From Obrimoposthia wandeli (Eukaryota): DNA of 64,000 bases. Location of the stretch: assembly GCA_977020255.1 (NCBI GenBank), contig CDROCS010000434.1:372001-436000 (forward strand). The letters are read 5' to 3'. A model generated the notes under the pieces. The model saw only the letters and a program-made list of their open reading frames with translations. It was not told the DNA's origin and did not search any database. The translations under genes and the position numbers were made by a program. This document shows, in pieces, positions 22,965 through 50,299 of the stretch; positions within the stretch are counted from its first letter, which is position 1, and every line of letters starts with the position of its first letter.

Positions 22965-23155
22965 ACCGTTTTAAAAATACATACACGATATTTCACTCCA
23001 CACACGTCCACGACATTTCACTCCACACACGTCCACGATATTTCACTCCACACACGTCCACGATATTTCACTCTACATACATACACGGTTTTAAAGGGCA
23101 GTGGTACATCTCCCCGGGAGGGAGGGGGTGGATTATACCGGACATATCCACTACT
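22965..23155. mobile_element. Orphan right terminus of a Polinton/Maverick-type TIR, containing a 25-bp tandem repeat (about 3.5 copies)
   Basis: Ends ...GGGGGTGGATTATACCGGACATATCCACTACT (reverse complement AGTAGTGGATATGTCCGG), homologous to the termini at 38183, 44382 and 45997; repeat unit GATATTTCACTCCACACACGTCCAC. Confidence 0.85.
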
Positions 23156-25084: not shown

Positions 25085-25429
25085 GTAGGCTGATTATTTA
25101 CAGTTCTTCTTGAATTGAGTGTGTGCAGGGTGTATCGTAACTCCCTGCAATTTGTAAAGATATCAATAGTAGGTGTATGTAGCACTTCTGGAACAAGCCC
25201 CCCTGCTGAGGACAAAATGTCTTTGTTCTACTTTTTAGGTGACGTCATCGATGACTCATCGGACAAAGACATGACTCATTGATGACTCATATCCTTTGTT
25301 CTCCTAAAGTACACATGACTCATCACGTGTCCTCATGTGGTCATATTAAGGTCAAATTTCTCTCGAGTATACCTGATTTTCAAGGTCATGACTCATGTCC
25401 TTTGTTTTATTATACTATTTTAAGTTACT

Positions 25430-25762
25430 CATCGCTTGAGCTCATGTGCTTACCATGAGCCCAAGGTTATCGTCGAGGTCTAGGTTATGAGCTCATGTGC
25501 TGACTATGAGTCCAATGTTACTAATATATGATCATGAGCTCATGTGCTCACCATGAGCCCATGGTTATCGTCGAGGTCTAGGTTATGAACTCATGTGTCC
25601 ACCATGAGCCCAAGGTTATCCTCGGAGTCTAGGTTATGAGCTCATGTGCCCACCATGAGCCCAAGGTTATCGTGGAGGTCTAGGTTATGAGCTCATATGC
25701 TGACTATGAGCCCAAGGTTATCATAAAGTTCATGAGCCATGTGCTCACTATGAGCTCATGTC
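25430..25762. repeat. Subterminal tandem array (about 51-bp unit, TGAGCTCATGTGC..CATGAGCCCAAGGTTAT) in the left TIR; shorter copy at about 31620-31745
   Basis: Direct inspection; about 6-7 units on the left and 2-3 inverted units on the right. Confidence 0.85.
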
Positions 25763-26083
25763 ATGAAAGATAGACATCCAATCACATCACATCATCTAAA
25801 AGTATTATTAATCGAATATAAATTGATGATTATTCAAATAATGTTTGAAAAACACAATAGAAGGACTACAATCAATAGATATTTGTTCATCTATTGTGTT
25901 TTTCAAACATATTTATTGAAATTAAATCAATAAAAAATGAAACTTACTCGAGATTGGAAGCAGCAGAATAAAAATATAAATAAAAATAAAAATATTACCT
26001 GAATACTACAACTAAATCCATCCAGCATGGAATGAACTTGGAATGAGCTTGACGTACTTGTGATAATTGGTTGCGGTGAAAGT

Positions 26084-26181
26084 TTAGGGTTAGGGGTATG
26101 GCTTAGGGGTATGGCTTAGGGTTAGGGTTAGGGTTAGGGTTAGGGTTAGGGTTAGGGTTAGGGTTAGGGTTAGGGTTAGGG
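26084..26181 (+). repeat. Telomere-type array: 11 perfect TTAGGG (26116-26181) preceded by degenerate variants
   Basis: Direct inspection. Confidence 0.97.
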
Positions 26182-26256
26182 TGCTTTATAATTTGAGAGT
26201 TTCAATATGTCTTATTCATATATCCTTATATAGAACTCACATGAGATATAAACAAA

Positions 26257-26754
26257 ATGAGTAATAATAACATGCATTCATGAATACAACCAAACAAATC
26301 CTCATCAAATCAGCTGAGATTAGATAGAATATAAACAATTCAGGTGTTGACAAACATCGATAAGAAGACAGCAATATCAAAGAGGATTAATTCCATTGCA
26401 TTGAAGATAAGAATCAAGAAACAGTCTATGGATTTTATTCAACAATTAGATATCTCCAATGATTTCATCAAATTGAAGAAACCAAAATTTCAAGATTCTT
26501 ATCATAAATTTGGATGGGATATGTATTTACTCAAAAATCCTATAACATACCACTTCTCCAATCATGACAATGTAAAGAAAATCAAGTTTGATTATATCAT
26601 CAGATATATCCATGATGTTATACAATTGAATGAACTCATGCAACAATTGAATATTGGATATAAAATCCATAGAAATTATATATTGTTGAGAGCTGATGAA
26701 CGTATTTTTGCTGATTATTGGAATGTTGAAAAGGATATGAAAAATAGAAAATAG
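26257..26754 (+). pseudogene. Orphan ORF inside the non-autonomous element (137 open codons from 26344; upstream ATG at 26257 separated by two stops)
   Basis: ORF track 26344..26754 plus an in-frame upstream ATG; no recognisable motif. Confidence 0.35.
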
Positions 26755-29467
26755 AGCCTATTCATCATGATTCAAGGATTTATGACCAAATGTGATGGAA
26801 GTTTAAAACATATGGAAGATTACTGAAGGATGTATAATGTTATAGAAATTATTAATAAATATAGATGTTTTATCTTACGAATTTATCTCCTATCCACTTG
26901 GATATCATAATTTCCTGAAAATATCGTTAATTTCTCTATTTTTCTCTTCTTAAACATCTTAACCACCACGAGATGTCTCTCTACTTTAAGCGCAACTCTA
27001 TACTTTTCTTCTTAACCCACAATATTTCCCGATATTAAACCTCTTAACCACCACGTAATTTCTCTCTACTTTAAGCCCAACTCTATTCTTTTCCTTAAAC
27101 ATCTTAACCATCATGTAATTTCCCTTTCCTCTTCATAAACATCTTAACCACCATGAGATTTCTCTCTTCTTAACCCTATAAAAATAATCTATTTTAGTAA
27201 CATTGTATCATCCATTATTATTGGTTAATCTGAGTCTCAAAGATATATTTAAATAAACATGTAAGCTGATTAATAGTAACGTCACCATACCTTTCATGAA
27301 TATACATTTTCTCAAGAAGCCTTTCAATTTCATATATTGATGGGAAAATTACTGATATTACTAAAGAATCGATCAAATACTTACTAAAATCAATTTTATC
27401 ACCTACAAGAAGAAAAATCCAATATTATGATGTCATTTTCCGGAATATCAATGGATCAATGTCTACCCAACTGGATTACAATGGAATATACAAGATCTGA
27501 CCTTGTGGATTAGTGACTCCTGTTTGGAATCTATGGAATTAACAAATAAAGGTACGTATTTTCTCCTTTATATTTATTAATATTTTATAAGAAGTTCGAA
27601 AGTTAAGGATATATTGATGTGAATATTGATATTTATTGAATTAGATGATTTATGAAACGTTAGTAATGAATAGTAATATCTTAATAAAATGGTGAGAAAC
27701 TATGCTATCTTTAGAAATATTAAACCTTACCCTAGATTCAATAATCCCTAGCTACTTGATAAAATATATTAATCAATAAAATACTTATGATGAATTATTG
27801 TTAAGGTTTTATTAGGATTTACAACATGTGTTATGATATAGATGAAATATGTGCATTATCGATTATTTTGGTATAAGATTCTTTGTATGCAAGCTTGTAT
27901 GATAATCAATTTAACTTTCAAAACATCTAAGTCTTCTCCATATTTAACTATATTATCCCGTTTTATACTCTAAATCTCAATGACACATTAGAAAATCATT
28001 ATTCCTATTATCAGCCACTTTATGATGGTTGATGATAGTGAGATTAGATGTTGATAATATTGATAATTTCAGTTTTTCAATAATCAATATGTATGGAAAT
28101 ATATGAATTTATGGCATTTGGTAATTTCTCTGAAAGTTATGGATGAAAGTTTTTGAAAGAAGATTCATGATAGAGATGTTAGAAGACATGGATAGATGTG
28201 TCTCGATTTATTGAGTATTAGATTCATTCTTATAAAATTTCCATTATTTTCCTTTTACAGCCTAACCTGATTATCTAACTCAAAAGTCTTAATATCTTAG
28301 TTTTTACAACAAAATGCTTAAAGTTAAACAACTACAACGTAGAATATTTTAAACAACTGCAACGTAGAATATTTCAATCAATCAACATTGATGTATAAGT
28401 AATGTCAAATTATGAAAGTTATTTAAAAAACATCCATATATGACTGCTTTAATGAAAGAGGTAGGCTTGATATTGGTTTGATTCTATGCTATTCTTTCCT
28501 TAAACCCTAATACTTGTTATATTTTTTCCTCTTAAACCTCTTAACATTCATGAGATTTTCCTAACATCCATGAGTTTATCCTAACTACTACGTTATTTTC
28601 CTTCTTAAACCTCTCAACTACCTTGAGATTTCCCTAACTAGCATTAGATTTTCCTCTCAACTACCATGGGATTATCCTAACATCTACTAGATTATCCTAA
28701 CTTCCACGTTATTTTCCTCCTTAAACCACTCAACTTCCACGAGATTTTTCTAACTACCATGAGATTATACTCTAACTTCCACGTTATTTTCTTTCTTAAA
28801 CCACTGAACTTCCACGTGAGTTCCCTAATTCTCTTCTCGAACCATCTAAATATCGTAAATTTCCTGAACATATCATTAATTTCCTGAATACATCAATACT
28901 TTTAGAACATAATATAGAACATATACTTGTTATTATGATAAACAATATCGATTCGAATTGAAAAAGATAGAGATGTAATGATTAATAATTAGAGTTTTGT
29001 ATATACGTTGTATTTCTTGTAAGTATTCAGACATAAATGCATACACACACCCAATAGTCTCTATATTCTGTTTTTCTTGTTCTGTCAGCTTGTAAATTTT
29101 TGTAAGTATTCACACACACACAATATTACTATAGTCTATTCCCTGCTCAAGCAATCTTCCAACAATTAGAAGGAATTCCAGTGGATTACTATACTCCAAT
29201 TTCTCTCAACTAAGTTTACTATATGTGTTTGCTTGTTCAATCAATCTTCCACCAATCAGAATACACTCCAGTCGATTACTATTCTCCATCCTTCTAAGTA
29301 TGTTTGCTATATTTGCTATACGTTGCCATAAATACCCCGTTGATATTTAGTATCTACTTTAGCTATAATTTTCTAATGATAGTAATACATAACACTTTGT
29401 AAGCATGATAAAATCGATGAATACAAGCTATATTGATAAATTATTACGAATAACCTTAGTAGTCTTA

Positions 29468-29694
29468 TGATATATATATATATATATATATATATATTCC
29501 AAGATTCAATTCTACATTAGAAATATCAATATATTAATTGAGATTTAATATCTATAACCAATAACATGTAGAATATTGATCTATTTTTAATTTCAGTTTA
29601 ACATCTGATATTAAATAGTTTCTTTAGGAAACATTAGATGAGAAGAGAAGATGAAGTTATGAAGAGATAAGATGAAGTGATGCCTACATTTTAG

Positions 29695-29727
<33 letters not shown>
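29468..29727. repeat. Two (TA)n microsatellites (about 29468-29497 and 29698-29727)
   Basis: Direct inspection. Confidence 0.9.
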
Positions 29728-29733
<6 letters not shown>

Positions 29734-30229
29734 ATGATATAGCAAAATCACAAGTACTTGTAACCATAACAAACATATATTTGAATTTGCAGGCATTGAA
29801 ATTGATGCATTAAAACAAATTTTTGATATGATGTACTAAAATCATTATACATGAATAGCTTTACACATGTAATTAGATATCTGGTAATATACATAAGCTT
29901 TATTAAACACATGCATACCTGATTAAGCTTTACATACAAACATACACACACATACATTCATGATTAAGCTTTATTATATGCGTGCAAGGGATGTCATCTG
30001 ATGTTTTTGTTAATCTACTAGTAATCAAATATGCTCACATACATACATACATACAGTTAATTATGTTTCCAAGTGTCAACATCTGTCTAATTATTCACAC
30101 ACATATGTATGAGTGATGTAAACAAATGGAAAACATATTAAATGAAATTTACATAGCTTAGTTTAGGTAAATAAATTTTGTAAATATTTTATTACTTTGT
30201 TTTAAAAGTAATTGATTTTAAAGTAATAA

Positions 30230-31030
30230 AGTTTTGAATAAAATAAATTTTTGAAGAAAATAAGTTTTTGAAGAAAATACTTTTTTGAAGACAATAAGTT
30301 TTTGAAGAAAATACTTTTTTGAAGACAATAAGTTTTTGAAGAAAATACTTTTTTGAAGACAATAAGTTTTTGAAGAAAATAAGTTTTCAGGAAATAAAGT
30401 TTTGATGAAAAAATTTCACAGGCACAAATTTTCATGTACAAAACGTTTTTGGTGAAAATGATGTACAAGTGATTTAAAAACTTTTTAATTTTGACGCCAA
30501 AAAATTTTGAAAGTTAAACAAAATTTTTTGAAAAAATAATTTTTAAACTTTTTGGAAAAAATATATTTTTGAAGGTTTTGGACCCTTGAATGTGCACCCT
30601 CGAAGGTATAATCAAAGTCAGATCAATGCTATTATATATAACTTTGCAAAGTAGAAAAATAAAAAAGTTTGAAGATTTTGAACCCTTAAAGGTTAAGCGT
30701 CGAAGGTCTGACTAAGTTCTAGTCAAGTCCATTATATATAACTTTGAAATGTAGAAAAATAAATTTTTTGAAGGTTTGAACCCTTGAGGATTCCCCCTTG
30801 AAGGTTTTAGATCCTCTGAGAGAACCCTAATCGAATAAGCATATTAAAGAATAAGCTCAAAGTAGCAACTCGAAGAATCAGCAATAAGAAGTACCTTAAA
30901 AGAAGCAACTCAGAGAATTTCCTTAAAAGAAGCAAGTCAAAGAACTTCCTTTAAAGAAGCTACTCAAATAACTTCCTTAAAAGAAGCTACTCAAATAACT
31001 TCCTTAAAGAAGCAGCTCAAATAACCTGCT
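30230..31030. repeat. Cluster of tandem repeats: TTTTTGAAGA(C/A)AAT units, about 105-bp units (30560-30810) and about 27-bp AAAAGAAGCTACTCAAATAACTTCCTT units (30880-31030)
   Basis: Direct inspection; unit sizes approximate. Confidence 0.75.
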
Positions 31031-33169
31031 CAAAGAAGATCCATCAAGAGTGAGTAACCATGTGCTCATAGTCGTTGTCCTGAAAGGCTCATGTCCTCAA
31101 CATGTGAAAGAAAGGAAATAATTCACAAAGCACATTACGTGTACAAATGTTGCAAATAAGAGTAATTATTTGTAATTATTTGTAAATCACACACTCACAC
31201 AGTCACGTGACATTTTCATCACATCTGTGTGAGTGTGTGATTTTCTCTTCCCTACTGTACACTCCAATACAAGGCAGATATTTTCGCTGCCTTGTATTGA
31301 AGTATGTGTGCGGTTAATGCCATCAGTTGATGATGGCAGAATCGCATCACTCTACTGCTGAATTGGATTTAGCTGCTGTATTCAGGTAAATTTTTTATTT
31401 ATATTTATATTTTTATTCTGCTGCTTCCAATCTCGAGTAAGTTTTATTTTTTATTGATTTAATTTCAATATATATGTTTGAAAAACACAATAGAAGAACA
31501 AATATATATTGATTGTTGTCCTTCTATTGTGTTTTTCAAACATTATTTGAATAATCATCAATTTATATTCAATTAATAATACTTTTAGATGATGTGATGT
31601 GATTGGATGTCTATCTTTCATGACATGAGCTCATATTGAGCACATGGGCTCATGAACCTTATGATAACCTTGGGCTCATAGTCAGCACATGAGCTCAAAA
31701 TCTTATAATAATCTTGAGCTCATGGTAAGCACATGGGCTCAAGCGATGAGTAACTTAAAATAGTATAATAAAACAAAGGACATGAGTCATGACCTTGAAA
31801 TTCAGGTGTACTCGGGAGAAATTTGACCTTAACATGACCACATGAGGACACGTGATGAGTCATGTGTACTTTAGGAGAACAAAGGATATGAGTCATCGAT
31901 GAGTCATGTCTTTGTTCGTTGAGTCATCGACGAGTCACCTAAAAAGTAGAACAAACACATTTTGTCCTCAGCAGGGGGCTTTGTTCCAGAAGTGCTACAT
32001 CTACCTACTATCAATTTAATAAAAGCAAAAGATATTTATACTAAATAACGATTTAAATGACATTTATGTAATCAATCCAACAATTTCCCACCTAGAAACA
32101 AATACACTGCTTCAAATGTCTGAAATATAAACGTATTATTAAGTACATAGCGCAATATAGAATTGCAATGGATACAACTAGGCTATTTAAAACGTCAGTA
32201 AAGGTAGAAATAACCGGTTAAGATCCACTTATAAAGGTTCCAATGTTACCAAGTCAAATTAAAGGCGAATTTCTAGAAACTGAATTAAAGGTTTGAGGTC
32301 AAATTACTTGGGTCTGTCTGTATGAACTCAAGTGTATGGTGCTTATTCAAAATACAGAGGTAAATACGAATTATTGCCGTGCTGTCTTGCGATTAGTGTC
32401 GCAAGCTCAGAATTGATCTACTAAGCTGGGGAAGAAAAATCAGAATCATCAATGACCTTGACGAGGTTACAAGTAGACGGTCGTCTAAGCTGATGTGCCT
32501 TCTATTTCTTATCATTATCAGCAAATATCGGCGTCATTCACGCTCATTGCGCTCTAATCGCATCACTGACCCCTGCAAACTGGAAAATCCAATTTTTCCC
32601 CCAACCCAGGGAATTTTTTCACCCAGCTGTCTGAATATAAAACATTTCGAGGGAATTTTCGATTTTTGTTTTAAGGATAGGCTTTTCCTGACTATCGCAA
32701 ATGTAGACTACTAATATAAGCGATTTCATACAGTCAATGGTAATACAGTTAAATGTGAGGTAAGATAACATCAAATAGCATACTTCTATCTCGCGCCATA
32801 TTGATGATCTGATGATCACACATTATTCAAAGTCCATTAAAATACATGAACTTGATGGCACGCAATTTATTGTAGCTTGAATTTGATGTCATAGAAACTC
32901 TTCGTCGTGTTTTGCTATGAAATCACTAAAAATCGCCTTTTATGCTTACTGATCCGGTGATTAAATCTCCAGACCGGATGTGAGGATAATTGATCGGTAT
33001 TGAGATTTTATAAAATTGTCAAGTGCGGTTAAATTATTTTCATTTTGACTCTATTAAAATTGCTCAATTTTCTCCCTCGATTTCTTATAACTAAAGCATG
33101 ACAAAAATTTATAATGATCGACTGATAAGTATAGAATGATTAAAATGTAAATAAACAATGAAACAATGA

Positions 33170-36470: not shown

Positions 36471-38327
36471 AATTGAAGATATTCTTGAATTTGCTTGTTC
36501 ATTTCTGTTTTGTTCGACAAACAGTATTCTCAGTATTATATTCATAGTCAGTTCATTGACAATGACTCTACACAACTTAATATAATTTTTGGAAATTCTG
36601 ATAATTGACATTTTGCTTCTGTGATCCCTAATTGACTTTGGACCATAAGATTTAATTGATGTTGCTTAACTATTCGAATCTCTTAAATAATCTGATATTG
36701 TCGAATGATGTCTGTTGAGCTTTATGCAAATGCTTTACGAACTTTGTACACATATTTATAAGAATATTCATTTCTTATCATCAATTAAAAATGTATTATT
36801 TTGAAGAAACATCTTGTCTAAAAAACATATACAAATTTCATACTCATAACAAAGTCACTTTTGAAAATTTTATAAAACTGTCTATACAGTTTTGAAACTT
36901 TACAATTACGACAAAAAATTAAAATTATTAAAAAAGTAAATATAATTGATTTTTTTAAATCAATATTTAGAATTAATAATGCATATAAATTATAACGAAA
37001 GTTATAACGTTATAAAAGAAAATACAAGAGTTATTTATATTTTTTTGTGCTTATATAGTTTTTCAACATGGTATATAATTTATATTTATGTAGTCACAAT
37101 CTGTTTAAGTTTATTTTTTCTATAAATATGCTTATTATATTTCTATATTTTGTACTTCAAAATAATTCAAAATAATTAATATTAATAACTTTAGGTTAAT
37201 TTGTATGAAACCATTATCATGACTTATTTATTAATATAACCTAAATGCAAAAGTGTCGAAAAAGAATTCTTTCAAAACCAGTTTCAATTAAAATTTTAAC
37301 CATTCAAAGCATTTTAACAATATTAATTCTATGCTTTTTTTGAAGTTTTTACAGTTATTTAACAGTAAAGAATGATAAATTTGATATCTTATAAATATTT
37401 GCTTTTTGTCAAAAATTGGATATTTTTACATCCAGAGTTTCCCAGATGGGATTATTCCTTATACTAGTAACATATACTATAAATCTATTGATAGCTTAAT
37501 TTTCATGGTTACGTTTATTATTAGCTAATTTTATTCTATGATATCTTAGAGGTTCATGATTAATAATTGATTGAAGTTTTTCTATAGTGATATTCAATTT
37601 TTATTTTCACAATATTGTTTTCTGCAATTATTTAAGCTAAAACACAAAAATAGTACATGTAATTTTTTTTATTCTAACAGTAGTTAAAAATGACAACAGT
37701 GCAGTAACTTTTTAAAGAATTCAGGGGTGAAAACTGACCGAATTCAGCAAGACAAGAAATTTCAAAACGACCTCGGATTTCAAGAACATTGAAGAAACAC
37801 ATCTCTTCATTAAGTTCATTTCATTTGAGTTCTAAAGTGAAATGGCCGTGATATTAGGTCCTGTATGCTGCACATTTTGAAGCAATATCCTGGAAAGAAG
37901 TTGGAGGATGGTATGACTCAGTTTCTTCTGCGTGATGTCAAGGGAACGATCAGAGAGATAGATAAAAGTTGCTCTATCCTAGATCTCTACATCCACGACA
38001 GACTGGGAGCATGGGTTGATTCTATTGGAGATCGTCCGTCTGCGTTAAATCATCTCTGATTTCAAATTTCACACCATCGTTGCAATTAACTATCAAAGAG
38101 ACTCAATTTTGCTACAATACATTCAATTCTTGCCTAACTGATAACGTCATTAAACAGTAATACGCGATGATTATCTACCTACAGTAGGTGGATGTGTCCG
38201 GTCTAATCCACACCCCCTCCCCCCTGTCCTTTAAAACCGTGCATGTGTGGAGTGAAATTTCGTGTAGGTGTGTGGAGTGAAATTTCACTCCACACACATG
38301 CATGGTTTTAAAGGACAGGGGGCCTCG

Positions 38328-38840
38328 GGCTCGAGACTGGTGTATATCACAGACTTCCTTGGGTGATGGGCGAAAGGCTCGGAACTGGTGTATATCACAG
38401 ACTTCCTTGGGTGATGGGCGAAAGTCTCGGGACTGGTGTATATCACAGACTTCCTTGGGTGATGGGCGAAAGTCTCGGGACTGGTGTATATCACAGACTT
38501 CCTTGGGTGATGGGTGAAAGGCTCGAGACTGGTGTATATCACAGACTTCCTTGGGTGATGGGCGAAAGGCTCGGAACTGGTGTATATCACAGACTTCCTT
38601 GGGTGATGGGCGAAAGTCTCGGGACTGGTGTATATCACAGACTTCCTTGGGTGATGGGCGAAAGTCTCGGGACTGGTGTATATCACAGACTTCCTTGGGT
38701 GATGGGTGAAAGGCTCGAGACTGGTGTATATCACAGACTTCCTTGGGTGATGGGCGAAAGGCTCGGGACTGGTGTATATCAAAGACTTCCTTGGGTGATG
38801 GGCGAAAGGCTAGGGACTGGTGTATATCACAGACTTCCTT
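38328..38840. repeat. 48-bp tandem array (about 11 units) next to the left TIR
   Basis: CTGGTGTATATCA recurs every 48 bp from 38337 to 38817; variants repeat with a 4-unit (192-bp) period. Confidence 0.95.
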
Positions 38841-39049
38841 CGCAATACATTGACTTACATAGTCAAGACTCATCGGTGGTGAGTGAATGAGAAGCAGCAG
38901 CAAGAGCGGACCTGTTGGAAGAAGAAGCCTCATTGGCCAGCTCAACTCCAAGAGAACAACTAATGGACGTGAGAGGCGGGGTACAGAGATCCCAATATAT
39001 TGACCTGGCAAGTCAGGATTCGATGGAGAATTGGGGAGACTGTACTAAT

Positions 39050-39774
39050 TTTTGAGCTAATTTTCGAAATTCGAACATATTCGTTTTTCTTATATTTAGC
39101 TTTTTTAATATTTTCTTTTTTTATTTTTGTCCATCCAAATATCAATAGAGTTTTTATTAGTAACATCAACAGGTCTCATTCCCTCATGTTCAGAGTGATT
39201 ATATGCATGTATTATTTTAGGTAAAACTTAGATTCATTTTTTATTTCCTTCTTTTGTGAAATACATTTTTATTCGATCTCTTAAAGTACAATTAAATCTT
39301 TCTACTACTGCTGCTTTGTACTGTGAAAACACAGAGTAGTGATTTATATTATTTTGTTTAAATAATTATTGAATTTGCTGATTATAAATTTCTTTTCCTA
39401 AATCAGTTTGCACATTTTGTGGAATGTCCTCTTTTAATATTTCTTTAATGGCTTCAAGCATAGCTATTGAAGACTTTGCTTTAACTGGAATTGCACGAGC
39501 AAACCTGCTAAATACATCAATACATGTTAAAATATATCGATATCCCTTATTAATGGAGAATATGGTATCATCTCCATCAAATCCATTTGCCATAAATTAT
39601 TAGGACCGCTGGTTTTGTAAGCTCTAGTTGGAAACTTTCTTCTCATCGGCTTGTTCAGACTGTAGGCTAACTGATCGCTTAGCCATTTCTGCATTTATTG
39701 GTTATTTTGTTTTGTTCATTTTGCTAATTTTGAAACTCCTGTGGGTCTTTTGGATTGAACCATATCTTCTCCAT
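39050..39774 (-). pseudogene. Polinton retroviral-like (rve, DDE) integrase, frameshifted and 3'-truncated
   Basis: MEKIWFNPKDP..; KPMRRKFPTR..NNLWQMDL; GYRYILTCIDVFSRFARAIP; QNVQTDLGKE; KAAVVERFNCTLRDR; AYNHS..GMRPVDV; KYKKNEYVRISK; several stops and frameshifts. Confidence 0.92.
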
Positions 39775-39860
39775 TACAACAATTTGAATAGAAAGAAAAT
39801 TTAAATTTAGGTAAAGAAGGGTTAGCACCCATTTCTTTAGCTGATTTTTGAAATAATTGT

Positions 39861-40190
39861 TTATGTATGTGTCGCAGCTATAATACTACTGATAATTGAA
39901 GCAACAACTGGAATAACAGCCCCTATGAAACCACCATTATGTTTAAGAATAATATTTCGTTTTCTTTTTTTACTTTTTACATTAGCAATATCTAGAAGAG
40001 TTTTTCTATATTTCTTTTATATATTTTTCCGATTTCCAACTTTTACTCGTCCCAAAACTATATTATACAAAACTTCCAATAAATCATCTACAACAAAAGA
40101 TGGAAATGCTTTAGGAATAATCATTCTCTTATGAGAAGAGGCTTTGACTAAAGCTTTAAAATAGGGTATGCTTCTTTGTATTTTCTTCAT
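39861..40190 (-). pseudogene. 109-codon basic protein ending in GG-F plus a hydrophobic helix (adenovirus pX-like architecture); one nonsense codon at 40017-40019
   Basis: MKKIQRSIPYFKALVKASSHKRMIIPKAFPSFVVDDLLEVLYNIVLGRVKVGNRKNI*KKYRKTLLDIANVKSKKRKRNIILKHNGGFIGAVIPVVASIISSIIAATHT. Confidence 0.7.
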
Positions 40191-40221
40191 TTTAATAAAA
40201 AAGGTTCAATTTAAATATTGT

Positions 40222-40362
40222 TTATATTCGAAGCCATTTAAGTTTTTTTTTATTTTTAACTACAGATTTGATTAATTTTTTCACTTCTTTTTTCTTAATG
40301 ATTCTTTTTTTTGATTTCTTAGATTTTACTTTACGTTTTACTATCAACTTTGTAAAAGGCAT
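40222..40362 (-). CDS. 46-aa Lys-rich protein, putative DNA-packaging core protein
   Basis: MPFTKLIVKRKVKSKKSKKRIIKKKEVKKLIKSVVKNKKKLKWLRI; 22 of 46 residues K/R; sits tightly between the ATPase stop and the next ATG; below the ORF-track cutoff. Confidence 0.55.
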   Translation of the reverse strand: MPFTKLIVKRKVKSKKSKKRIIKKKEVKKLIKSVVKNKKKLKWLRI

Positions 40363-40369
40363 TGCGAAT

Positions 40370-41017
40370 TTATTTTTTATAATTGTTCTCTATTTGTTTA
40401 TAAACAGTTACTCCCTTAGAATTAAATATGTCTGTTAAAACACGTAAATCATCTGGGCAAGCTTGTGTAAAGTCAATAAATATATACCCATGTGCTTGTT
40501 TAGCAGCATCGTGGAATGAATCAACTAGAAAGTTCTTATTTTGAGGAAATGCCTGTCTGGCCACAAAATCAACAACTGTTTCATCTCTAGGATTTTTAAA
40601 TAAAACTAAGTAATGTACATTAAGATTTCTTGTTCTATGGTAACCTCCTTGGTGAAAAAGATTTTGAGTGATAAATATAACTGTTACTTCACGATGTCTT
40701 GCAATCTTTGTAAATAAATTATTAAAGTCCGATTTCTTGTTAGCTTCCTGATACAAATCATCAATTATTATTACATCTTCTTTTTTCAATCTTTCGCACC
40801 AATTTGCATCAAATCCTTCAATAAATTTTATTCCCTTCAACTTGCAAACTTCTGTTTTGGTTAATCCGCTTTTCCCTCCTCCACCATGATGCCAATAAAT
40901 ATTTTTGAAACTAGATTTGAAAATAGATTCATTTTGCAACAATTTACATACGAAATGTGTCTTTCCACTTCCACTGGGACCAACTATTTGAAATACAGCA
41001 TTATTATTTAGCACCAT
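40370..41017 (-). CDS. A32/FtsK-HerA-like genome-packaging ATPase of Polinton type (intact, 215 aa)
   Basis: Walker A GPSGSGKT, Walker B VIIIDD, ARHREVTVIFITQNLF and LVLFKNPRD motifs. Confidence 0.93.
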   Translation of the reverse strand: MVLNNNAVFQIVGPSGSGKTHFVCKLLQNESIFKSSFKNIYWHHGGGGKSGLTKTEVCKLKGIKFIEGFDANWCERLKKEDVIIIDDLYQEANKKSDFNNLFTKIARHREVTVIFITQNLFHQGGYHRTRNLNVHYLVLFKNPRDETVVDFVARQAFPQNKNFLVDSFHDAAKQAHGYIFIDFTQACPDDLRVLTDIFNSKGVTVYKQIENNYKK

Positions 41018-41054
41018 TGCATATACTCTTTCATTTTTAATATTGTTTATATTA

Positions 41055-41326
41055 TCATAGAAGTTTCTTTATTGAAATGTACAATGTTAGAGCTATTGTA
41101 GATGAAATAAAAAAATTAATTATTGAATATTTGGCTATAATTTTATTTATTTGTGTACGATTTCTAAATTCTCGAATAACGTGTGATCTAACCAATATTT
41201 CAATGTTATTACTTGTTATATCATTATTTTTTAATTCTGATAAAATTTCTTTACCCCTAATTTTCCAGAAAATATTTCGTCGGCAAGCCGATCCACTTCA
41301 TTGTCTCTATTTATAATATTATTCAT
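41055..41326 (-). pseudogene. About 90-aa orphan protein with a C-terminal hydrophobic segment; one frameshift
   Basis: MNNIINRDNEVDRLADEIF / WKIRGKEILSELKNNDITSNNIEILVRSHVIREFRNRTQINKIIAKYSIINFFISSTIALTLYISIKKLL*; fills the gap between the TBP-like gene and the ATPase. Confidence 0.45.
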
Positions 41327-41354
41327 TTGAGACAATAAGTTTAAACGGGTTTGT

Positions 41355-41855
41355 TTATAGAAAAGATAACAAGATGTAATAAGATATATTTTCTAAAATC
41401 AAATCAACAATGTATGGATAATCAAAATTTTTCAATCCCAATATCATAACTTTACCACAGGAAAATATATTTACACATAATGGTTTAAACTTCAAATAAC
41501 TGAGAGCAGAAAAAATTTCTGGTTCAAACATGCATTCTTCTTTTATTTTCTCTGCAGTTTTAAAAAGATTTATCTGTTTCCCAAGATTAGCCGAAATCGT
41601 GATTGATTGTATTGCAGTGATTCAAATTCCAAATGGTAAATTGAACCCAAGCATTGGTATTTTGCATCCCATAACACGACAATTTCCTAAAGAATTCAAT
41701 ATGAAAATAAAATAAAAAACTAACCTGTAGGAAAAATAACAACTGTGAAATTTTCAAAATTTTTCTACATATTGTCTCGGCTTCCATTCATTGAATGGTA
41801 AGTACGAAACATCATCTTCTGTTCTACCTTTATAATTTATATTTACGAGTTTCAT
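41355..41855 (-). pseudogene. TBP-like: TATA-binding-protein-like gene carried by the Polinton; two exons (41855-41725, 41686-41355), one frameshift (about 41758) and one nonsense codon (41622-41624)
   Basis: Reconstructed MKLVNINYKGRTEDDVSYLPFNEWKPRQYVE(K/N)FENFTVVIFPTGNCRVMGCK...*ITAIQSITISANLGKQINLFKTAEKIKEECMFEPEIFSALSYLKFKPLCVNIFSCGKVMILGLKNFDYPYIVDLILENISYYILLSFL shows both TBP repeats (cf. LQNIV..NPKRF..ALIFSSGKMVCTGAK and IQNIV..YEPELFPGL..LLIFVSGKVVLTGAK); 38-bp GT..AG intron at 41724-41687. Confidence 0.85.
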
Positions 41856-42071
41856 TAGACTGAAATTGTATTCTGTAAAATCTTCTTTATATATGTCTGA
41901 ACCTGCTTTTTTATTGCACGTTTCTTGTAATTATCTTGCAAACCTATTATAATTGGATGATATATTTAGTCCAATCAAATTCAATGCTTTTGTTTTATTA
42001 ACCAATGAGATTCATGTTTTTGTTAGAAATTAGTATAAAAGAATGCGCCATTGGAGGACAAATCACAGTAA
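41856..42071. promoter_or_regulatory. Divergent promoter region with TATA box and CAGT initiator on each strand
   Basis: Minus: TATATAAAG 41893-41885 and TCAGT 41863-41859 (TATA T to Inr A = 32 nt). Plus: TATAAAAG 42034-42041 and CAGT 42066-42069 (33 nt). Each is just upstream of an ATG. Confidence 0.65.
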
Positions 42072-42548
42072 ATGCATTCATATCAAAGACAATTATCAAC
42101 GATGGACGATAGCCAACGGGTATTAAGCGATGACGAAGAAATGTTTGAAGAATCGGATAAGGATATGTATGAAGAAGTGAAACAATATTTCAAATACAAA
42201 GTCAGATTCTTGAAGAAGGCTCAGCTGATTGCTTTAGTAAATCCTGTGACAATTGAAAGAAGAAAGTTCAGCTACTATCTATCAGGTATTCAAAAACCTG
42301 ATTTTCAATATCTTAAACAGAAAATAGAAAAGGCAGTTCCAAATTTTACTTTCAATAAGAACGAATTTTATATCCGAGGAGCCGATGAAGCATTTCTAGA
42401 TGACTATGGAAGATATGTTGATATTGATGCGTTTCCGAAAAAGAAGCAATGGACTCTAACAATTCGACTTTATGGTTACAAGAAAGATGAAATGGGAACA
42501 AAGTTGCCTATGTGGAAAATTGAACGTGCTCATATTTCTATGTTTTAA
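42072..42548 (+). CDS. 158-aa orphan Polinton protein, paralog A (acidic N-terminus)
   Basis: Intact ORF with TATA/Inr; aligns along its length with the ORF at 43333-43737. Confidence 0.75.
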   Translation: MHSYQRQLSTMDDSQRVLSDDEEMFEESDKDMYEEVKQYFKYKVRFLKKAQLIALVNPVTIERRKFSYYLSGIQKPDFQYLKQKIEKAVPNFTFNKNEFYIRGADEAFLDDYGRYVDIDAFPKKKQWTLTIRLYGYKKDEMGTKLPMWKIERAHISMF

Positions 42549-43059
42549 CTTTTGCTTTTAATAAATTGTAATCGGTTTTACTATGTTTCTTTCATTTAAT
42601 AATCAGTTTTATTTTTTAAATATTTGTATCATATATGTATTTTACTACTTGTACTTTAGAGCAACGCTCTGTGAACTGGCCGCAATTTTAGAGTGAAGAC
42701 TCTAGCGTCAACCAACCCTAAAACCTAAAATCGATACGTGGTTCATCCCCACTGGTGTAGAGACTTTCAGAAGTTTTAGGAATTTTACTACAACTTCTTA
42801 GAAAATACGTACGTAAACGTATTGTTTTGTTTTAGTCTAGTGTGTTAACAATAAACGATTTCCTACATTAGAAAGCATTGTTCTAAAAACCTTCAGATTA
42901 AGAGACATCGAAAAACAAACACCTTCAGATAAGCATTGAGACAGGCAACCATAACATTAAGTAGGCCACAACCATCTACAAGTCCTGCTTCTATAGAACT
43001 CACGTTGGGGCCCTCTACAGTCAAGAGGATCTATAAGTTTCATATAGAAACCTAAAAAC

Positions 43060-43293
43060 AAAAGGAAGCAATGGACTGTAACAATTCGACTATATGGTTA
43101 CAAGAAAGATGAAATAGGAACAAAGTTGCCTATGTGGAAAATTTAACGTGCTCATATTTATATGTTTTAACTTTTTTCTTTTGCGTGTAAAAAAATTGTA
43201 ATCGGTTTTACTATGTTTCTTTCATTTGGCAATTAATAATCAGTTTTATTTTTTCTAATATTTGTATCTTATTTGTATCTTATATGTATTTTT
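43060..43293 (+). repeat. Direct duplication of about 42438-42643 (3' end and trailer of paralog A)
   Basis: Near-identical GAAGCAATGGACT..ACAATTCGACT..ATGGTTACAAGAAAGATGAAAT..GGAACAAAGTTGCCTATGTGGAAAATT.. and downstream AT-rich trailer. Confidence 0.9.
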
Positions 43294-43332
43294 TTATAAA
43301 CATTGTTTTTTAATCAGTTTCCTTATTTTAGA

Positions 43333-43737
43333 ATGGATAAGAGATGTGTAGCAAATTTTTATTATCCAGAAAGAATTTCAAAAGAAAAACTATGTAATAT
43401 ATTAAAGAGGCATCAAATTATATGAGTTATGAATCCTGTGAAAATATCAAAAGTGGAGAATAAATATCTCATCGAAATTTTAACAACATCTGATTTTGAT
43501 CAATTGAAAAATATTTTGGGATTTTACATTCCTGATTATGTATATGAAGGAAATTGTTTCCAGCTTGAAACTGATCCCAGTCTGGATTTTAAAGATGATC
43601 TAGGATATTTGATTGCTCCAATTTTAGATGAAGAACTATGGAATATCTCAATACGTCTCAATGGATATTTTGCTGATGACGGGAAAATGCAGCCTCTTTG
43701 GACTTTGAGTGAAGCCAATATGTTGTTTTATGTTTAA
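43333..43737 (+). pseudogene. Orphan Polinton protein, paralog B (134 codons, one nonsense codon at 43423-43425)
   Basis: MDKRCVANFYYPERISKEKLCNILKRHQII*VMNPVKISK...LWNISIRLNGYFADDGKMQPLWTLSEANMLFYV. Confidence 0.7.
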
Positions 43738-43869
43738 TAAATGTTTTGAAAAATAATTTTGACTCGTATTTAGTTTTTTCACCTCTAAATTATATAGATC
43801 TGACCGTTTTTTATCCTATAAATTCTAAAACTGACATAGATATTTAACATGTAAGGATATTTGATCATT

Positions 43870-44184
43870 ACTTTCACCCATCACCCACCGATTTTCACCC
43901 AACACCCATCGACTTTCACCCAACACCCATCGACTTTCACCCATCACCCATCGACTTTCACCCAACACCCATCGACATTTACCCATCATCCAACGACTTT
44001 CACCCAACACCCGTCGACTTTCACCCAACACCCATCGACTTTCACCCAACACCCATCGACATTTACCCATCATCCAACGACTTTCACCCAACACCCGTCG
44101 ACTTTCACCCAACACCCATCGACTTTCACCCATCACCCGTCGACTTTCACCCAACACCCATCGACTTTCACCCATCACCCAAGG
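43870..44184. repeat. 21-bp tandem array (15 units) next to the right TIR
   Basis: ACTTTCACCCA(A/T)CACCCATCG units, followed by one inverted copy of the 48-bp unit. Confidence 0.95.
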
Positions 44185-45996
44185 AAGTCTGTGATATACA
44201 CCAGTCCCGAGCCTTTCGCGCCGACAAGCGACAAATTTTTTTTGGGGACCCCCCCTGTCCTTTAAAACCATGCATGTAAAACTCCACACACCTACACGAA
44301 ATTTCACTCCACACACAATCATGGTTTTAAAGGACAGGGAGGGGGGAGGGGGTGTGGATTAAACCGGACATATCCACCTACTACCTACAATGCATGTAAG
44401 TAAGCCATCGTGCAACTTACAGCATTCAATCAGAAGTACTTTCAGTTAATTTGCATTTATAAATGTTTAATTTATATTTAATTGTATAATAAATCGTATA
44501 AAAACAATATGCACCACTATCGCTCAGCGGATCTGCCATCTTCGATGAACAACGTTACTACGACTGAAGACGAAGGCAGAAGGGATCCCTCGACCCCATC
44601 AACACCGGCCTTCAGTGACCCTGGCAATACTTCCACTTCTTCAGAAGATCATTTTCCGGTGGCCACCAGCTGACTTGGGAGTAGATCTCACAGTCAGACA
44701 GAAAGAGAAGAACCCTGAGATATTCTATTTCTTTCATTAGTTTACTTTATGATTGAGATTGAGTGGACCTTATTCATTTCTGTGTGGTTTGTGGCTCAAT
44801 AAGTGCAAAGATATAGCTTTGTGTTGATAGACAGAAGATTTGGGCCGACAAAATGCAGATATGTCTGCTCAAAAAAATGTATTTGACATTTTTTTTCAAA
44901 TCCCATTTTTTTCTGGGATATCTATTGTATATAATTTTTTAAAGATAATGTAAATTGTAAGTTAAAATAACTATAAAAAATCATTTAATGTAGCGCTAAT
45001 ATCTAACAATTATATGATTTATTACTCAAAGCGCTGTTTGTTTTCCATTGTTCTTCGAAATATTTTCTGAATAGTAAAGTCTTCAGCTACATTGTTACAG
45101 ATTCGTATATCCATTGATAAAATGTAGTAAAGACTCAGAGCATAAATTACAAATATTATATCAATCAGTTTATTGTTTGAGAATTCTCTAATCAATCTTC
45201 GTTTATCATTGTTTTTCGTTAGATGCATTTACATGCTCACAGCATCAGATTCGAGAAGATCATATAAATATTTGGGTTTCTATGAGAGAATATATTTTTT
45301 TGAAAATAAGTTTTATCTTTAATTCAATTTTTGTATTGATCAGTAGCCAATGTAGTTTCATTAAATGTACACATAGTAATAAAATAATTACGATTTAAAA
45401 GCGTTGATTGTTATTTATTTAATTAGTTTAAAATTATAACTGTTACGAAATTGTTTAGCCATTTTATATTTTTTTTGATAAAATAGCAATAAATTTACAT
45501 CATTCATTATTCGATTACCAAATAAAAAAAATTATTGAATTTTTTTTTAATTATGAAGTTCAATGAAAGTTGGTTTCATATCTGAAAATCCGTAAGACCT
45601 GAATGGGTAAAATTCAACGATTTCAAAAATGCTTTTGACTAGCGAACAAGAAAATTCTGACAGGAAGTTAACAGTAGATGATAAATGTAAGAGAAGACGT
45701 AAATCCTCTTGAGAAGTCGCCAGAAGTTCAGATATAAGAATTGACCATATATGTGTTTGGTGATTAAAGCAACATTCAAGTTTTACATATGCTGTAATGC
45801 AGAAACAAATAAAACTTACACAACATAAAATTTCCAAGAAACTTATGTTAAACTTAATTGTACGGCTGATAAAGTTATCTTATTTATATTCCTGCTGGCT
45901 ATTAATATTATTAGAACGACTTGCAAAAAATTGAAAATTTTCTGATTTAAATACATACATGGGATAATGGTTTTGGATGCAAATTTTTATAATGGT

Positions 45997-47310
45997 AGTA
46001 GGTGGATATGTCCGGTCTAATCCACCCCCTCCCCCTCCCCAGGGGCTACCACTGTCCTTTAAAACCGTGCATGTGTGTGGAGTGAAATTTCGTGAGTGTA
46101 TAAAAATATATACATGTCCTGAGACGTGTATACACTTTTCAACTGCACAAGTGCAGTTTACTGGCGGTGGATGGTACGGTGGTCAAGGTGGGAAATGAAA
46201 TTGGAAAATTAAGTGCATGGGATACTTGAATTCAATCAAGAACGAATTCGAGTAGGTCCATGCGCTTCCTGGCTTACCATTTAACTTCAGAAATTCATCA
46301 ATTCGTCCGCACTTGTGCCGATCGTGCCATACCAATGCACTAAATCCCTATATATGACTGAAATATATAAAGTAACCCATACGTGTTTTTTCTATCTCTT
46401 CCCCACCCCAACACTGTAAAAAACTATTTAACTTAACGCTCTTTAAAATTGAAAATATCATAGTGCTCCCACAGAGTGAGGAAGTACCTGAGAGGCCATC
46501 TAAGGGCCAACGCGTCTTCCCATTCAATTAGAGGGAGGTTTGTCAGCAACTATAGAAAGAAAGAGGCGAGGACAAAATCTTAATAAGGTCCTACCAAAGA
46601 AACGTAGATAAAACGGTGCTACTATAGCGTGTCACCTAAATAATAAATATATTATAGTTAAGGTGCCATTAAGAAATATATTTTTTTAATAAACGTAGGT
46701 GTAGATTCAAATATTGAAAGTAGTTTAAAATCTGAAGTTACTAAATTAGCTCAGGCTAAGGTTCAATTTTGCGCAACAGTACAGTTTAAAATGTCAATGA
46801 GGAGTCTAAAACTTGGGTAATTTCACATAAAGCAACTGTTTTTTATGATAATTTTGTAACTGAAATTGGAAGAAACCTGGATGAAAACATTGCTAATTAT
46901 AGCGAGTTAAGTAGTGGATGGACTCTAGTTAGAATTCACGATGTTAGCTTTGTTCTAACAAAGTTCACTGACATGATATATCTTTCGGGGAGTTCATACA
47001 TTCCTTCACCTAGATCTCTTCAACTTTCACGTTCCATTGTTAACGTACAAAACAGTGATAACCTTTGCTTTCTGTATAGCGTGTTGGCCATCCTCAAAAG
47101 GGATGTAATTACTGAGCACAGAGAGCGTGTCAGTAAATATACCCCTTTTTTAAATGAATTGCAGTATCATGGAATAGATTTTCCTGTTAAATTAACTGCG
47201 ATATCAAGATTTGAACATCTTAATAACTTGAGTATTAATGTATTCAAATATAATACTGATATCCCAGCTAATGGAACAGATGAAAAACGTTTTAAAAATC
47301 CTTTTATTAA
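45997..47310 (+). mobile_element. Truncated Polinton: left TIR (45997 to about 46100) plus the 5' part of a pPolB-type gene (about 46690-47310)
   Basis: Starts AGTAGGTGGATATGTCCGGTCTAATCCACC; downstream NYSELSSGWTLVRI...LSGSSYIPSP..IVNVQNSDNLCFLYSVLA..FPVKL..FEHLNNLSINVF, typical of the N-terminal region of animal Polinton pPolB; no right end found. Confidence 0.8.
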
Positions 47311-50299
47311 ATAGGCGAAACAATTTAATTTTTTTTTCTACAAATATCAGTATTTAGGACAATTTTCTTTGAACTGACGTTTGAAATTTTAATGCTGAAA
47401 GTATTACAGTATTTTCGCCAATATCAACTTATATAAGACAATTTTTTAAACCTTTACTTTTATACGCAAATAATATTTGAATTGAAACTATTTGCTTATA
47501 TTTCCATATGTTCAGCAAAACAAAAAATAATTAAAAAAACAAACATTTAATTGAATTAGTACAGTAAAACAAAAGTTTGATAATAATTAGGTCACGTGAA
47601 TATTTTAAAAAGATTACTCGTAAGACAATTTAAAAACTTTAACAAAAAAAATTTCCAAAATTTATTTTTTTAAAAATTGCGATTTTTTGGGCGAGAGAAA
47701 ATGTAATTTGGTATAAATACACATGTTGAAATATATTCAAGGTTTTAAAAAATATTTAAACTCCATTTCTGATGAGGAAATCATGAGTATTAATCAGAAC
47801 AAGTTTTGACTCAATATTTACAGTTAATAACAGCATCATCAAAACCCAGAGCATGTCTGAAAATTTGGTTTCTCCCAATTAGATAATGAGTATTAATCAT
47901 GTAATAGTACAGTGATGGTTCCCGATCTTTGATTCAGAAGACCCCCTTGGTCATGAGCTGTGAGTTATGAGTCGGACCCTTATGAGCAAATGTCTTGACT
48001 TTTGGCACCACTGATAAGGGTTAAACTTATAACCCATATCTCATGGCTCAGGGTGCTCTGTTGAGTCCATGAGTGAGAACCGACACGTTACACTACTGAC
48101 ATTTGATTTACCATATTGAAATTTGGTATTTTGCACTAACCACTCTAGAAACTAACTCCAAGGAGGCATCGAAATCGTTATTCTCTATTTTTACATGCTT
48201 GGTCTTTGAAATGGCACGCCTGTCTGATCTCGAAGTACACAAGGAAACCAGTGATTCGTCCAAAGAACTTTCAATGGCACTTCAAAGCCAATGTATTTTC
48301 TATATCTACATCATCATTTTCATCTTAGACATTGATTATCATAAATGAGCAAGAAAACTTTGATCGAACACTGCAATTTTTTTCTATATTTAGACTAGGT
48401 TTTACTTTTTGCAAAAACACAGTACTTACACAGTACTTCACTGTCACTGCTTACTTCACAATTAATTTCATTTCTTGATATTATGATAGAAAGTTATAAT
48501 GTAGAAAACATATTCATCAGACATTACCGAATTTCTAAATTTTTAAACCGTCATAAATGATGTTATAAGTGTAATACAACAATATTTTTCAAAGAACTTC
48601 ATTAAATTAATCTCACAAAATAAATAAAATGTCTAACAATCAAATTTTATATCGAAAAAAATAAATAAAAAGAAGCAAGTATTATTTAGTGATTGAAGTA
48701 AAATTCTACCCAAACATAAATTACAACAACTTTTCCGAAAATAGGTTAATATTTAAAATCGATCATTTATAACATATTTTAAATCTTTTTACAGTTAACT
48801 AAATAATTTCACCAGATTCAAGTATTGCTAAACAATATTCTTTGTAAATCTGTTCTATGCGCTAATAAATAAACAAATATGCGATGTCATTGTCATGTTG
48901 TGGCAGTCAAATTGCAGTAGTTTGTGCAGTTGATTACTGTTTATGACGGTATGCGAATTATTTAATCAGTGCTGATTATTGTACTGCAGTGTCTAATTTT
49001 AAACTTTACTTCAATTGGTTCATATTAACGATCTCACAAGTAACTTTATTACTTCAATTCTTACTGCAAACCTTTGAATTTGTCGAATGATGAGTGAAAA
49101 TCACTTTGAACGGATTCTTTAGTTCGGGAATATTTTATGTGATTATTTTACGTTGATTTAAACTGCAATGGACGATAACACGGCAGCATCCAGTGAAAGT
49201 GAAGATGATGTGAGTAGCCATTATTTTAAAATTAAAGTAGTTTCTTTATTGATACTCATATGATAATTTAATTAATATAACCCACTTTTAATTCAAGTCT
49301 ATTTTACAATTTCCATTTCATATGTCGAAATTTTAAATGTCATTTCTGTACTTTGAACTCTGTTTAATTAATCTGCAGGATGCAGAATTTCTTTATGTAT
49401 CTTTAAAACATTAATATTCGCTTACAGCATATTAAAAATGAAGATTTGGACAAGTTAGAATAACTAATATGGATGTTTCTTACAAATCCGGGAAAACTAT
49501 GAAACAGAATCAGTAACTGTTAATTTTCTGTTTGATCGCCATTCCCGTGTTTCTCTTCAAATATTTATCGCAAGATTAATGTTATTGGGTTGCTTTACAT
49601 TATTTATAACAAAATACCAAAAGAAAAATAAGTGAAAGATAAAATGACAATTTTGTTTTCTCAATTTCAGCTAGTGATAGAAAAATGTTCCTCTAATAAA
49701 TATAAAAAACTTTCTTCTTGTCTGTTTTCATGGAAGATAGTTTCCTGATGTTATTAAGTCTTTGTCAAAATTTAAATATTTTGTGATTTTTAACTTATTA
49801 ATTATCATTACATCATATGTTAATAAATATTGATTTAAATACTAGAAGAAATATTTACTTTTCAACAATGTGATTTTCTTGTTTTGAAAGAGTCATTTAT
49901 AATAAAACAATAAGTGGTATTGTATTTAAAAAATGTTGAGTTATACGTTGGCAAAAGTTTTGTTTAAGATTTATTTCATTTTGTTTATTCCATGTAGACT
50001 TGGATAAACTAAAAGATATAATTTCAGATTGAAGTAGTCCTGTATTTTAGCGATGGCATTTGTTTAAACTAATTAGAATTATCGAGCCTCAATAGTACTA
50101 TGGAGGGGATTGAAAAATAGTGCGATTTTGTACGTGCTTGCGTAGGGACATAAAAAATTGATTTTTTCGACGAAAATTGACTATTTAAATAATTATTTTG
50201 TTGATATCCAGAAACGACAAAGCAATGTTTAAAAATAGCTCTTTTATAGTTCTGGTAAAGTGAATTAAAATTGAAGCCGAAGAAATAATCTTAAGACCC

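Follow-up and report, generated by a model that had tools for sequence, protein, structure and literature searches.

A conserved TBP-fold gene of Polintons and its candidate late-promoter word

The stretch of Obrimoposthia wandeli DNA analysed here (the window; 64,000 nucleotides of contig CDROCS010000434.1, positions 372,001 to 436,000) contains, in decayed form, a conserved Polinton gene that specifies a minimal TBP-fold protein, hereafter mini-TBP. Mini-TBP is real, conserved and more than cargo; it belongs to the theme of viral TBPs and has a testable promoter partner. Our analysis suggests that it is probably the element's own late-gene initiation factor and the predicted reader of an upstream word, YATAAAC(A/G).

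The window gene and its Polinton

The TBP-like gene runs on the minus strand from an ATG at 41855-41853 to a final stop at 41357-41355 and specifies a product of about 150 aa. Two lesions break the window copy: a frameshift near 41757-41766 and an in-frame stop at 41624-41622. An initial annotation had reported these lesions, both stops, the ATG, a 38-nt GT..AG intron and the TBP-type motifs, and all were found at the positions given. The unbroken piece 41358-41621 matches Pfam TBP (PF00352) with E 3.7e-10 and 39.9 bits against a cut-off of 22.9; the 33-aa N-terminal piece, scanned alone, yielded no Pfam match. Unbroken relatives of the protein score 45-65 bits against the same cut-off.

The gene resides in a 6.2 kb Polinton (38183-44382) with AG..CT termini and the 6-bp target-site duplication (TSD) ACCTAC on both sides. 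Its position between inverted termini with this TSD, and its linkage to Polinton genes, bear out the view that it is carried by the element. The features are as follows.

38183-38225, plus strand: terminal inverted repeat end (AGTAGG...), preceded by ACCTAC at 38177-38182
39099-39774, minus strand: rve integrase, broken and truncated by an internal deletion (tblastn E 5e-75; the relative L098 matches Pfam rve)
39850-40190, minus strand: broken gene for what we take, from resemblance and position, to be a pVII-like core protein (tblastn with the ORF of a second family; reading frames)
40370-41017, minus strand: A32-like packaging ATPase (Pfam Pox_A32, E 1.2e-6, over the cut-off)
41055-41326, minus strand: small gene between the TBP-like and ATPase genes, 90 aa in sister copies, frameshifted in the window
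41355-41855, minus strand: TBP-like gene (mini-TBP), two exons (Pfam match on the exon-2 piece; reading frames; unbroken relatives fold as TBP)
41687-41724, minus strand: putative 38-nt phase-1 GT..AG intron (variable length in sister copies, with exon frames preserved; same-site introns elsewhere)
41886-41893, minus strand: canonical TATA box (TATATAAA) 38 nt 5′ of the TBP-like ATG, a predicted host-type early promoter (sequence; TATAWAWR is frequent before TBP-like genes)
42072-42548, plus strand: OB-fold single-stranded-DNA-binding (SSB)-like gene, divergent from the TBP-like gene (model pLDDT 87.7; structure matches)
43335-43737, plus strand: second SSB-like paralogue, broken in the window (28% identity to the first, E 6e-10; sister-copy alignment)
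44340-44382, minus strand: opposite terminal inverted repeat end (...CCTACT), followed by ACCTAC at 44383-44388

The minus-strand order is thus TBP-like gene, small gene, A32-like ATPase, pVII-like gene and truncated integrase, with both SSB-like genes oriented opposite to this run. The first SSB-like gene is preceded by a canonical TATAAAAG at 42034-42041. Its model is best matched, with middling Z-scores, by T7 gp2.5 (Z 7.7), Enc34 SSB (Z 7.1) and ASFV CP312R (Z 6.5), and its comparison with NCLDV proteins gave E 1.6e-5. SSB-like relatives flank the TBP-like gene in many elements; the upstream word is canonical TATA for the first SSB-like gene and TATAAACA for the second.

The window element is devoid of pPolB and, among ATPase, protease and capsid genes, keeps the ATPase alone. 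Views of 20 kb around 10 sister copies show the run going on, if uninterrupted, to penton, capsid and an opposite-strand pPolB; pPolB lies beside six of the copies and integrase beside nine, some of these genes belonging to neighbouring elements. The full run in sister copies indicates that the window copy is an internal-deletion derivative of a full Polinton. Relatives of the window element show Pfam matches for pPolB and rve integrase, and the major capsid protein (MCP) of the family matches double-jelly-roll clusters at 0.97; a capsid profile compared with PDB sequences found no match. The penton label is our assumption from position and resemblance only. Following the MCP in sister copies and relatives is a His/Asp/Gln/Cys pattern, a pattern only, which we take from the motif to be a cysteine protease. 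The idea that these elements are without a protease (Pfam Peptidase_C5 gave no match) was dropped because this pattern follows the capsid gene.

Several other features of the region were recorded. Differences between copies over 40300-42600 are mostly C>T and G>A, the pattern that deamination would produce in copies once inserted. Subterminal tandem arrays at 38232-38951 and 43807-44247, with 48-bp and 21-bp units, have in common an inverted segment of 57-62 bp. The stretch 45997-47314 is the remnant of another copy, with a second Polinton terminus (AGTAGG at 45997) and then a pPolB fragment (tblastn E 4e-36), and 22979-23106 holds 25-bp repeats and a stretch resembling the subterminal sequence of the element. 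Finally, 25166-32011 (6.8 kb) is likely another transposon: it is bounded by inverted arms of about 850 bp (gaps included, 93-95%), between which lie several tandem arrays and, at about 26107-26190, a TTAGGG run.

The GT..AG intron pattern was matched in 27 of 30 sister loci, with intron lengths of 34-39 nt. Twenty-four of the 30 could be parsed, 22 with a 130-nt first exon and 18 with both exons open, the open-exon counts being biased by the choice of these loci as the best exon-2 matches. Indels per copy per 100 nt amount to 1.37 in the intron and 0.05-0.06 in the exons, a difference to which T-runs may contribute. Introns of different sequence occupy the same site and phase in L064, from another family of the same genome (43 nt), and in L121, a metagenome contig (40 nt). 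Most metagenome loci of the gene are intronless, reading through the site, and host TBP genes contain no intron at this site. Reads of four runs of unspecified type from one sample gave flat coverage, with no intron joint among the joints listed, and speak neither for nor against splicing. Judged from these sequences, the intron is a sub-lineage trait and not a family feature, its gain in one sub-lineage appearing the simplest reading. The description of the gene as intron-containing thus holds for the window lineage, and same-site introns in two divergent relatives favour it; it does not extend to the mostly intronless family.

Fold and conserved residues of mini-TBP

An unbroken, intronless relative from the same genome (P0153) yielded an AlphaFold2 model with a pLDDT of 96.4, which Foldseek matched to human TBP at E 1.3e-9. 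Together with the Pfam match on the window piece, these results uphold the TBP fold proposed in the initial annotation. The model is a TBP saddle, aligning with 1cdw at Z 13.3 and rmsd 2.4 over 147 residues (next unrelated structure, Z 6.7); human, yeast, plant and archaeal TBPs all give Z of about 13 over about 147 residues. It has no helix before residue 82, so that the N-lobe is without both its helices, and the alignment shows a gap there. The shortness previously ascribed to the linker between the repeats is real, the missing part being the two N-lobe helices and therefore more than the linker alone.

Like cellular and archaeal TBPs (PF00352; 1cdw, 1mp9), mini-TBP is a two-lobed saddle retaining three of the four phenylalanines and a C-lobe (Y/F)EPE(L/I)F stirrup. 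Unlike them, it spans only about 150 aa, has no N-lobe helices in the model and carries changed but invariant residues on the DNA face, with about 22% identity in the structural alignment. In 64 relatives F100 and F116 are present in 64/64 and F39 in 63/64, in agreement with the three phenylalanines noted before. The fourth position, noted as Tyr, turned out to be variable: its six commonest residues are L (11), Y (10), F (7), C (7), K (6) and A (6), with an uncertain loop register. The column is thus aromatic in the Y10 and F7 of 64, and the two Phe pairs of TBP are not both present. This variability could weaken DNA bending.

The stirrup glutamates E96 and E98 are each conserved in 63/64 relatives. 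Among changed DNA-face residues, N114 and M47 occur in 64/64, R45 in 63/64, S69 in 61/64 and N6 in 54/64. Canonical V71, V122, T124, N159, V161 and L205 correspond to N6, R45, M47, S69, T71 and N114, each strongly conserved; the equivalences come from sequence alignment, read against the yeast TBP numbering and structure, not from residue-level superposition. In TBP, the C-lobe glutamates serve TFIIB binding, and an N-lobe basic cluster, largely in helix H2, binds TFIIA, Mot1, Brf1 and TAF1 (Ravarani et al. 2020, PMC7221094, available part). The H2 basic cluster, a feature of eukaryotic TBP, is missing from mini-TBP.

A Pfam scan of 23 element proteins found no element-encoded TFIIB, although a very divergent one could escape the profile. 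Over the genome, Pfam TFIIB gave 12 matches from 29 candidates (compared with 19,768 candidates for TBP), and those inspected were intron-split host-like genes. The host TFIIB gene is intron-split in the region relevant to a complex with mini-TBP.

Upstream words and the proposed role

An unbiased k-mer count over the 150 nt 5′ of gene starts placed TATAAAC/ATAAACA at the top for ATPase, capsid, pVII-like, integrase and penton genes. The same words were not at the top for TBP-like, SSB-like or pPolB genes. Some gene starts were script-assigned, and broken fragments are present among the upstream sets of pPolB and SSB-like genes. Among 48 de-replicated upstream regions of ATPase, pVII-like, integrase, penton and MCP genes, ATAAAC is found in 43 and TATAAACA in 32 in sense and 1 in antisense orientation (shuffles, <1 per class). 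TBP-like genes form the other class: TATAAACA precedes 0/32 of them, and canonical TATAWAWR 16/32, against 5.5 in shuffles.

YATAAAC(A/G) lies mostly 30-57 nt 5′ of ATPase, capsid, pVII-like and integrase genes, and near-complete elements have a separate copy for almost every gene of the virion run. It also precedes non-structural genes (exonuclease-like, second SSB-like, IAP-like and KilA-N). In 23 elements or loci an ORF starts 28-60 nt 3′ of 89/147 sites. The corresponding figures for position-7 variants are 6/57 (A), 13/80 (T) and 10/35 (G), and for the comparison word AATAAA 54/491. Word sites fall in two reading frames of the upstream genes, and Ile-Asn pairs are coded ATA AAC in 8/23 cases, against about 6% from codon use. 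The window element contains the word five times on the minus strand and once before the second SSB-like gene. The 8-mer has 22 sites in the whole AT-rich window, equal to the chance prediction, and is common in host DNA.

41352-41359, minus strand: TATAAACA box over the TBP-like stop codon; the small gene starting at 41326 follows after 33 nt (same place in sister copy C5444)
41044-41051, minus strand: TATAAACA box about 34 nt before the packaging ATPase start
40395-40402, minus strand: TATAAACA box in the ATPase 3′ end; a small basic ORF follows after 40 nt
40219-40226, minus strand: TATAAACA box 36 nt before the pVII-like gene
39858-39865, minus strand: CATAAACA box 5′ of the integrase region
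43295-43302, plus strand: TATAAACA box before the second SSB-like gene

In L131, a distant member of 18.4 kb, the word is mostly CATAAAC(A/G) and not TATAAACA, which offers a chance to test protein-word co-variation.

Since virion, packaging and integrase genes stand mostly behind one TATA-like word, the element likely brings its own late-gene switch. We propose that host TBP/TFIID would transcribe the TBP-like gene early from its canonical TATA promoter, the host spliceosome removing the intron where present. Mini-TBP would then sit on YATAAAC(A/G) through its re-tooled concave face, and its intact C-lobe E-P-E stirrup would recruit host TFIIB, hence Pol II; host TFIIB is the candidate partner because the scans found no TFIIB in the elements. 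Having lost its N-lobe helices, mini-TBP may be free from contacts with Mot1/BTAF1, TFIIA, TAF1 and Brf1. The outcome would be an early-to-late switch like the one that herpesvirus vTBPs provide on TATT boxes, and would turn on virion and integrase genes. The link between protein and word is a co-occurrence within one clade, which shared ancestry alone could give. Of two roles suggested in the initial annotation, redirecting Pol II gains from the presence of YATAAAC(A/G) before virion genes, while competition with host TBP stays among the rivals.

The main rival, which we consider unlikely, holds that host TBP reads the word as a weak TATA box, or that a host factor (e.g., Forkhead) binds there, and that mini-TBP helps loosely or acts otherwise on element DNA. 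The C(-25) variant of the adenovirus major-late TATA box presumably reads TATAAAC. Wild-type TBP has been crystallised on this variant (1qn3, by its title), so host TBP may use the word itself; moreover, the consensus for FoxM1 is TAAACA (PMC2910063, available part). Neither host reading sits well with the strict strand and distance of the word or with an invariant C at position 7 in AT-rich DNA. GTAAACA has an ORF start at the same distance in 1/33 cases only. This rival is further at odds with the clean split between the word and the canonical TATA of the TBP-like gene and with the rarity of the word in TBP-negative contigs: it precedes 8/220 ORFs in 15 viral contigs without a TBP-like match, against 48/88 in 7 chosen TBP-bearing metagenome loci. 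These control contigs, distant loci from ATPase (6) and pPolB (9) scans of IMG/VR, are partial and remote (pPolB 28-33% identity) and do not represent animal Polintons without the gene.

It is rather improbable that mini-TBP is a decoy or repressor, sequestering host TFIIB or occupying host TATA boxes and so damping host transcription, with late promoters read otherwise. A kept TFIIB stirrup, a lost N-lobe surface for TFIIA and co-factors and one variable Phe position would all suit a decoy. However, a decoy has no need for invariant non-host residues facing the DNA, and a private word before element genes is left unexplained.

We give little credence to a third alternative, in which the word acts independently of the TBP-like protein as a polyadenylation or termination signal of the upstream gene in the head-to-tail run. 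The word does resemble AATAAA, and 58/147 sites lie near an upstream stop codon; yet 40/147 fall more than 30 nt inside the upstream ORF, 34 well past its stop and 15 have no upstream ORF. Furthermore, the distance from the word to the next ATG peaks at 30-39 nt (57/131) whatever the distance to the upstream stop, a pattern that suits an element in TATA position ahead of a very short 5′ UTR and does not suit a poly(A) signal.

Spread, selection and viral precedents

A 26-base stretch across exon 1 and the intron has 6,016 exact occurrences in the 1.35-Gb genome, and 150/150 exon 2 matches scored (best candidates only) are 94-100% identical. In a second family of this genome an intronless TBP-like ORF stands head to head with pPolB, in 5/5 neighbourhoods chosen for pPolB alone, and further families (L064, L155-type) also bear the gene. 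A phmmer search of 1.84 billion representatives gave 315 matches at E ≤0.001, the best 150 being short family members mixed with full-length TBPs; a profile built from 64 members retrieved 152 proteins at E ≤1e-10. Scans of IMG/VR with TBP-like, integrase and capsid alignments found no relatives.

In 63 metagenome loci with the TBP-like gene, a core Polinton gene adjoins in 30, accessory genes only in 16 and neither in 17, 16 of which are under 2 kb; among loci of at least 3 kb, 22/23 have a core or accessory Polinton gene. The place of the TBP-like gene varies: before the ATPase, or after capsid, protease and exonuclease-like genes. The occurrence in several families of the genome and in these metagenome loci substantiates the claim that the gene is lineage-wide, and the 30 loci provide the copies beside core genes that the initial annotation proposed to look for. 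Two further analyses proposed there also came out in favour. The family is, on sequence comparison, under purifying selection: dN/dS is 0.12-0.36 in 18/18 estimable pairs, which are not independent of one another, 8 more pairs being saturated. And in a quick tree of 93 rows, unrooted and with no donor inferred, a branch of SH-aLRT 99 separates 31 element rows and 12 short proteins from 3 host TBP rows and 47 longer TBPs. One-off capture of a host TBP pseudogene, passively carried, is hardly credible: the window copy is indeed broken and private exon-1 changes of sister copies look neutral (pN/pS 1.32), but the gene is kept in divergent families and the 63 loci with the dN/dS values above, 31/31 element rows lie across that branch from the host rows, and host TBP genes lack the intron. 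Recent or one-off host capture is thus refuted by distribution, selection and tree. The host TBP paralogues (L076-L084; G000 C238, C968, C60, C1092) comprise two divergently arranged genes, one intron-split divergent gene and two intronless divergent genes.

Returning to mini-TBP as a late-gene factor, the closest working analogy is the vTBP of beta- and gammaherpesviruses (KSHV ORF24, EBV BcRF1), a TBP mimic that picks out viral late promoters for host Pol II and has conserved Phe and a polar interface with DNA (PMC12529657, available part). ORF24 is multidomain, works in a multi-protein viral complex and, in a section heading of that paper, is modelled as incompatible with direct TFIIB binding. 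By contrast, mini-TBP is a bare single-domain saddle that keeps the TFIIB stirrup, and its word is YATAAACR, not TATT. BcRF1 ranks 25 among matches to the mini-TBP fold with a TM of 0.32, no close homology.

Viral TBPs are known from giant viruses and poxviruses, and NCLDV TBP-like proteins have lost the N-lobe regulator signature, a proposed escape from Mot1/BTAF1 (Ravarani et al. 2020, PMC7221094, available part). NCLDV TBP-like proteins are among the fold matches of mini-TBP in BFVD. According to the same part of that paper, NCLDVs mostly have their own TFIIB and divergent stirrups, whereas mini-TBP keeps the stirrup glutamates and no element TFIIB was found. The words "Polinton" and "transpos" are absent from its main text.

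The elements resemble Polintons, Mavericks, adintoviruses and MELD viruses in having TIRs, a 6-bp TSD, pPolB, rve integrase, ATPase, protease and a double-jelly-roll capsid. The novelty of the gene, left in the initial annotation to a literature check, is partly lost, since the Fig. 5 legend of Starrett et al. 2021 (PMC8502044, available part) already lists a TBP-like gene in related viruses. The animal adintovirus maps in the available text of Fig. S2 of that paper have no TBP label. The available parts of Starrett 2021, Jeong 2023 and Krupovic 2024 describe no conserved TBP family or late promoter word, "TATA" and "TBP" being absent from the latter two as available, and neither "TBP" nor "TATA" occurs in the main text of Buck 2024 or of a 2026 PLV framework preprint. 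None of the matches listed in a literature search for TATAAACA plus promoter concerned Polintons. Apart from the TBP-like gene in the Starrett legend, the mini-TBP family and its word were not found in the literature covered, which excludes Repbase, subscription papers, figures and part of the Starrett supplement.

In a broader form, about which our opinion is evenly balanced, a widespread Polinton clade would run two-tier transcription with the smallest known kind of viral TBP. This TBP would have a helix-less N-lobe and altered specificity for YATAAAC(A/G), and would work with host TFIIB and without any other viral initiation factor. If true, animal-type Polintons would have their first defined late-promoter system; such a system would point to a regulated virion-producing cycle and would be an orthogonal TBP-promoter pair of natural origin. 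According to Jeong et al. 2023 (available part), no Polinton virions have been observed; a dedicated factor and a defined word make the switching of a Polinton virion cycle testable, and late genes could be annotated by means of the word. The system would, moreover, demonstrate that a TBP of about 150 aa is able to function and to alter its specificity without helices in the N-lobe, a point relevant to TBP evolution and to orthogonal promoters. As the genome has thousands of copies and the 8-mer is common in host DNA, expression of mini-TBP could touch host genes.

TBP-bearing elements also carry accessory cargo (L172:2452-3351, minus strand; L121:1710-2168, plus; L098:222-719, minus; L131:7136-7996 and 9080-9481, plus). 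This includes a ubiquitin-conjugating enzyme, KilA-N and a parvovirus-type PLA2, all identified by Pfam, and ORFs that we take from their motifs to be IAP-like and RING-like. YATAAAC(A/G) precedes several of these genes. The pPolBs of L098 (10209-12698, minus strand) and L131 (222-4439, plus strand) contain an endonuclease VII-like insert slightly under the Pfam cut-off, which recalls the HNH insert of pPolB2 of nematodes and oomycetes (Jeong et al. 2023, available part).
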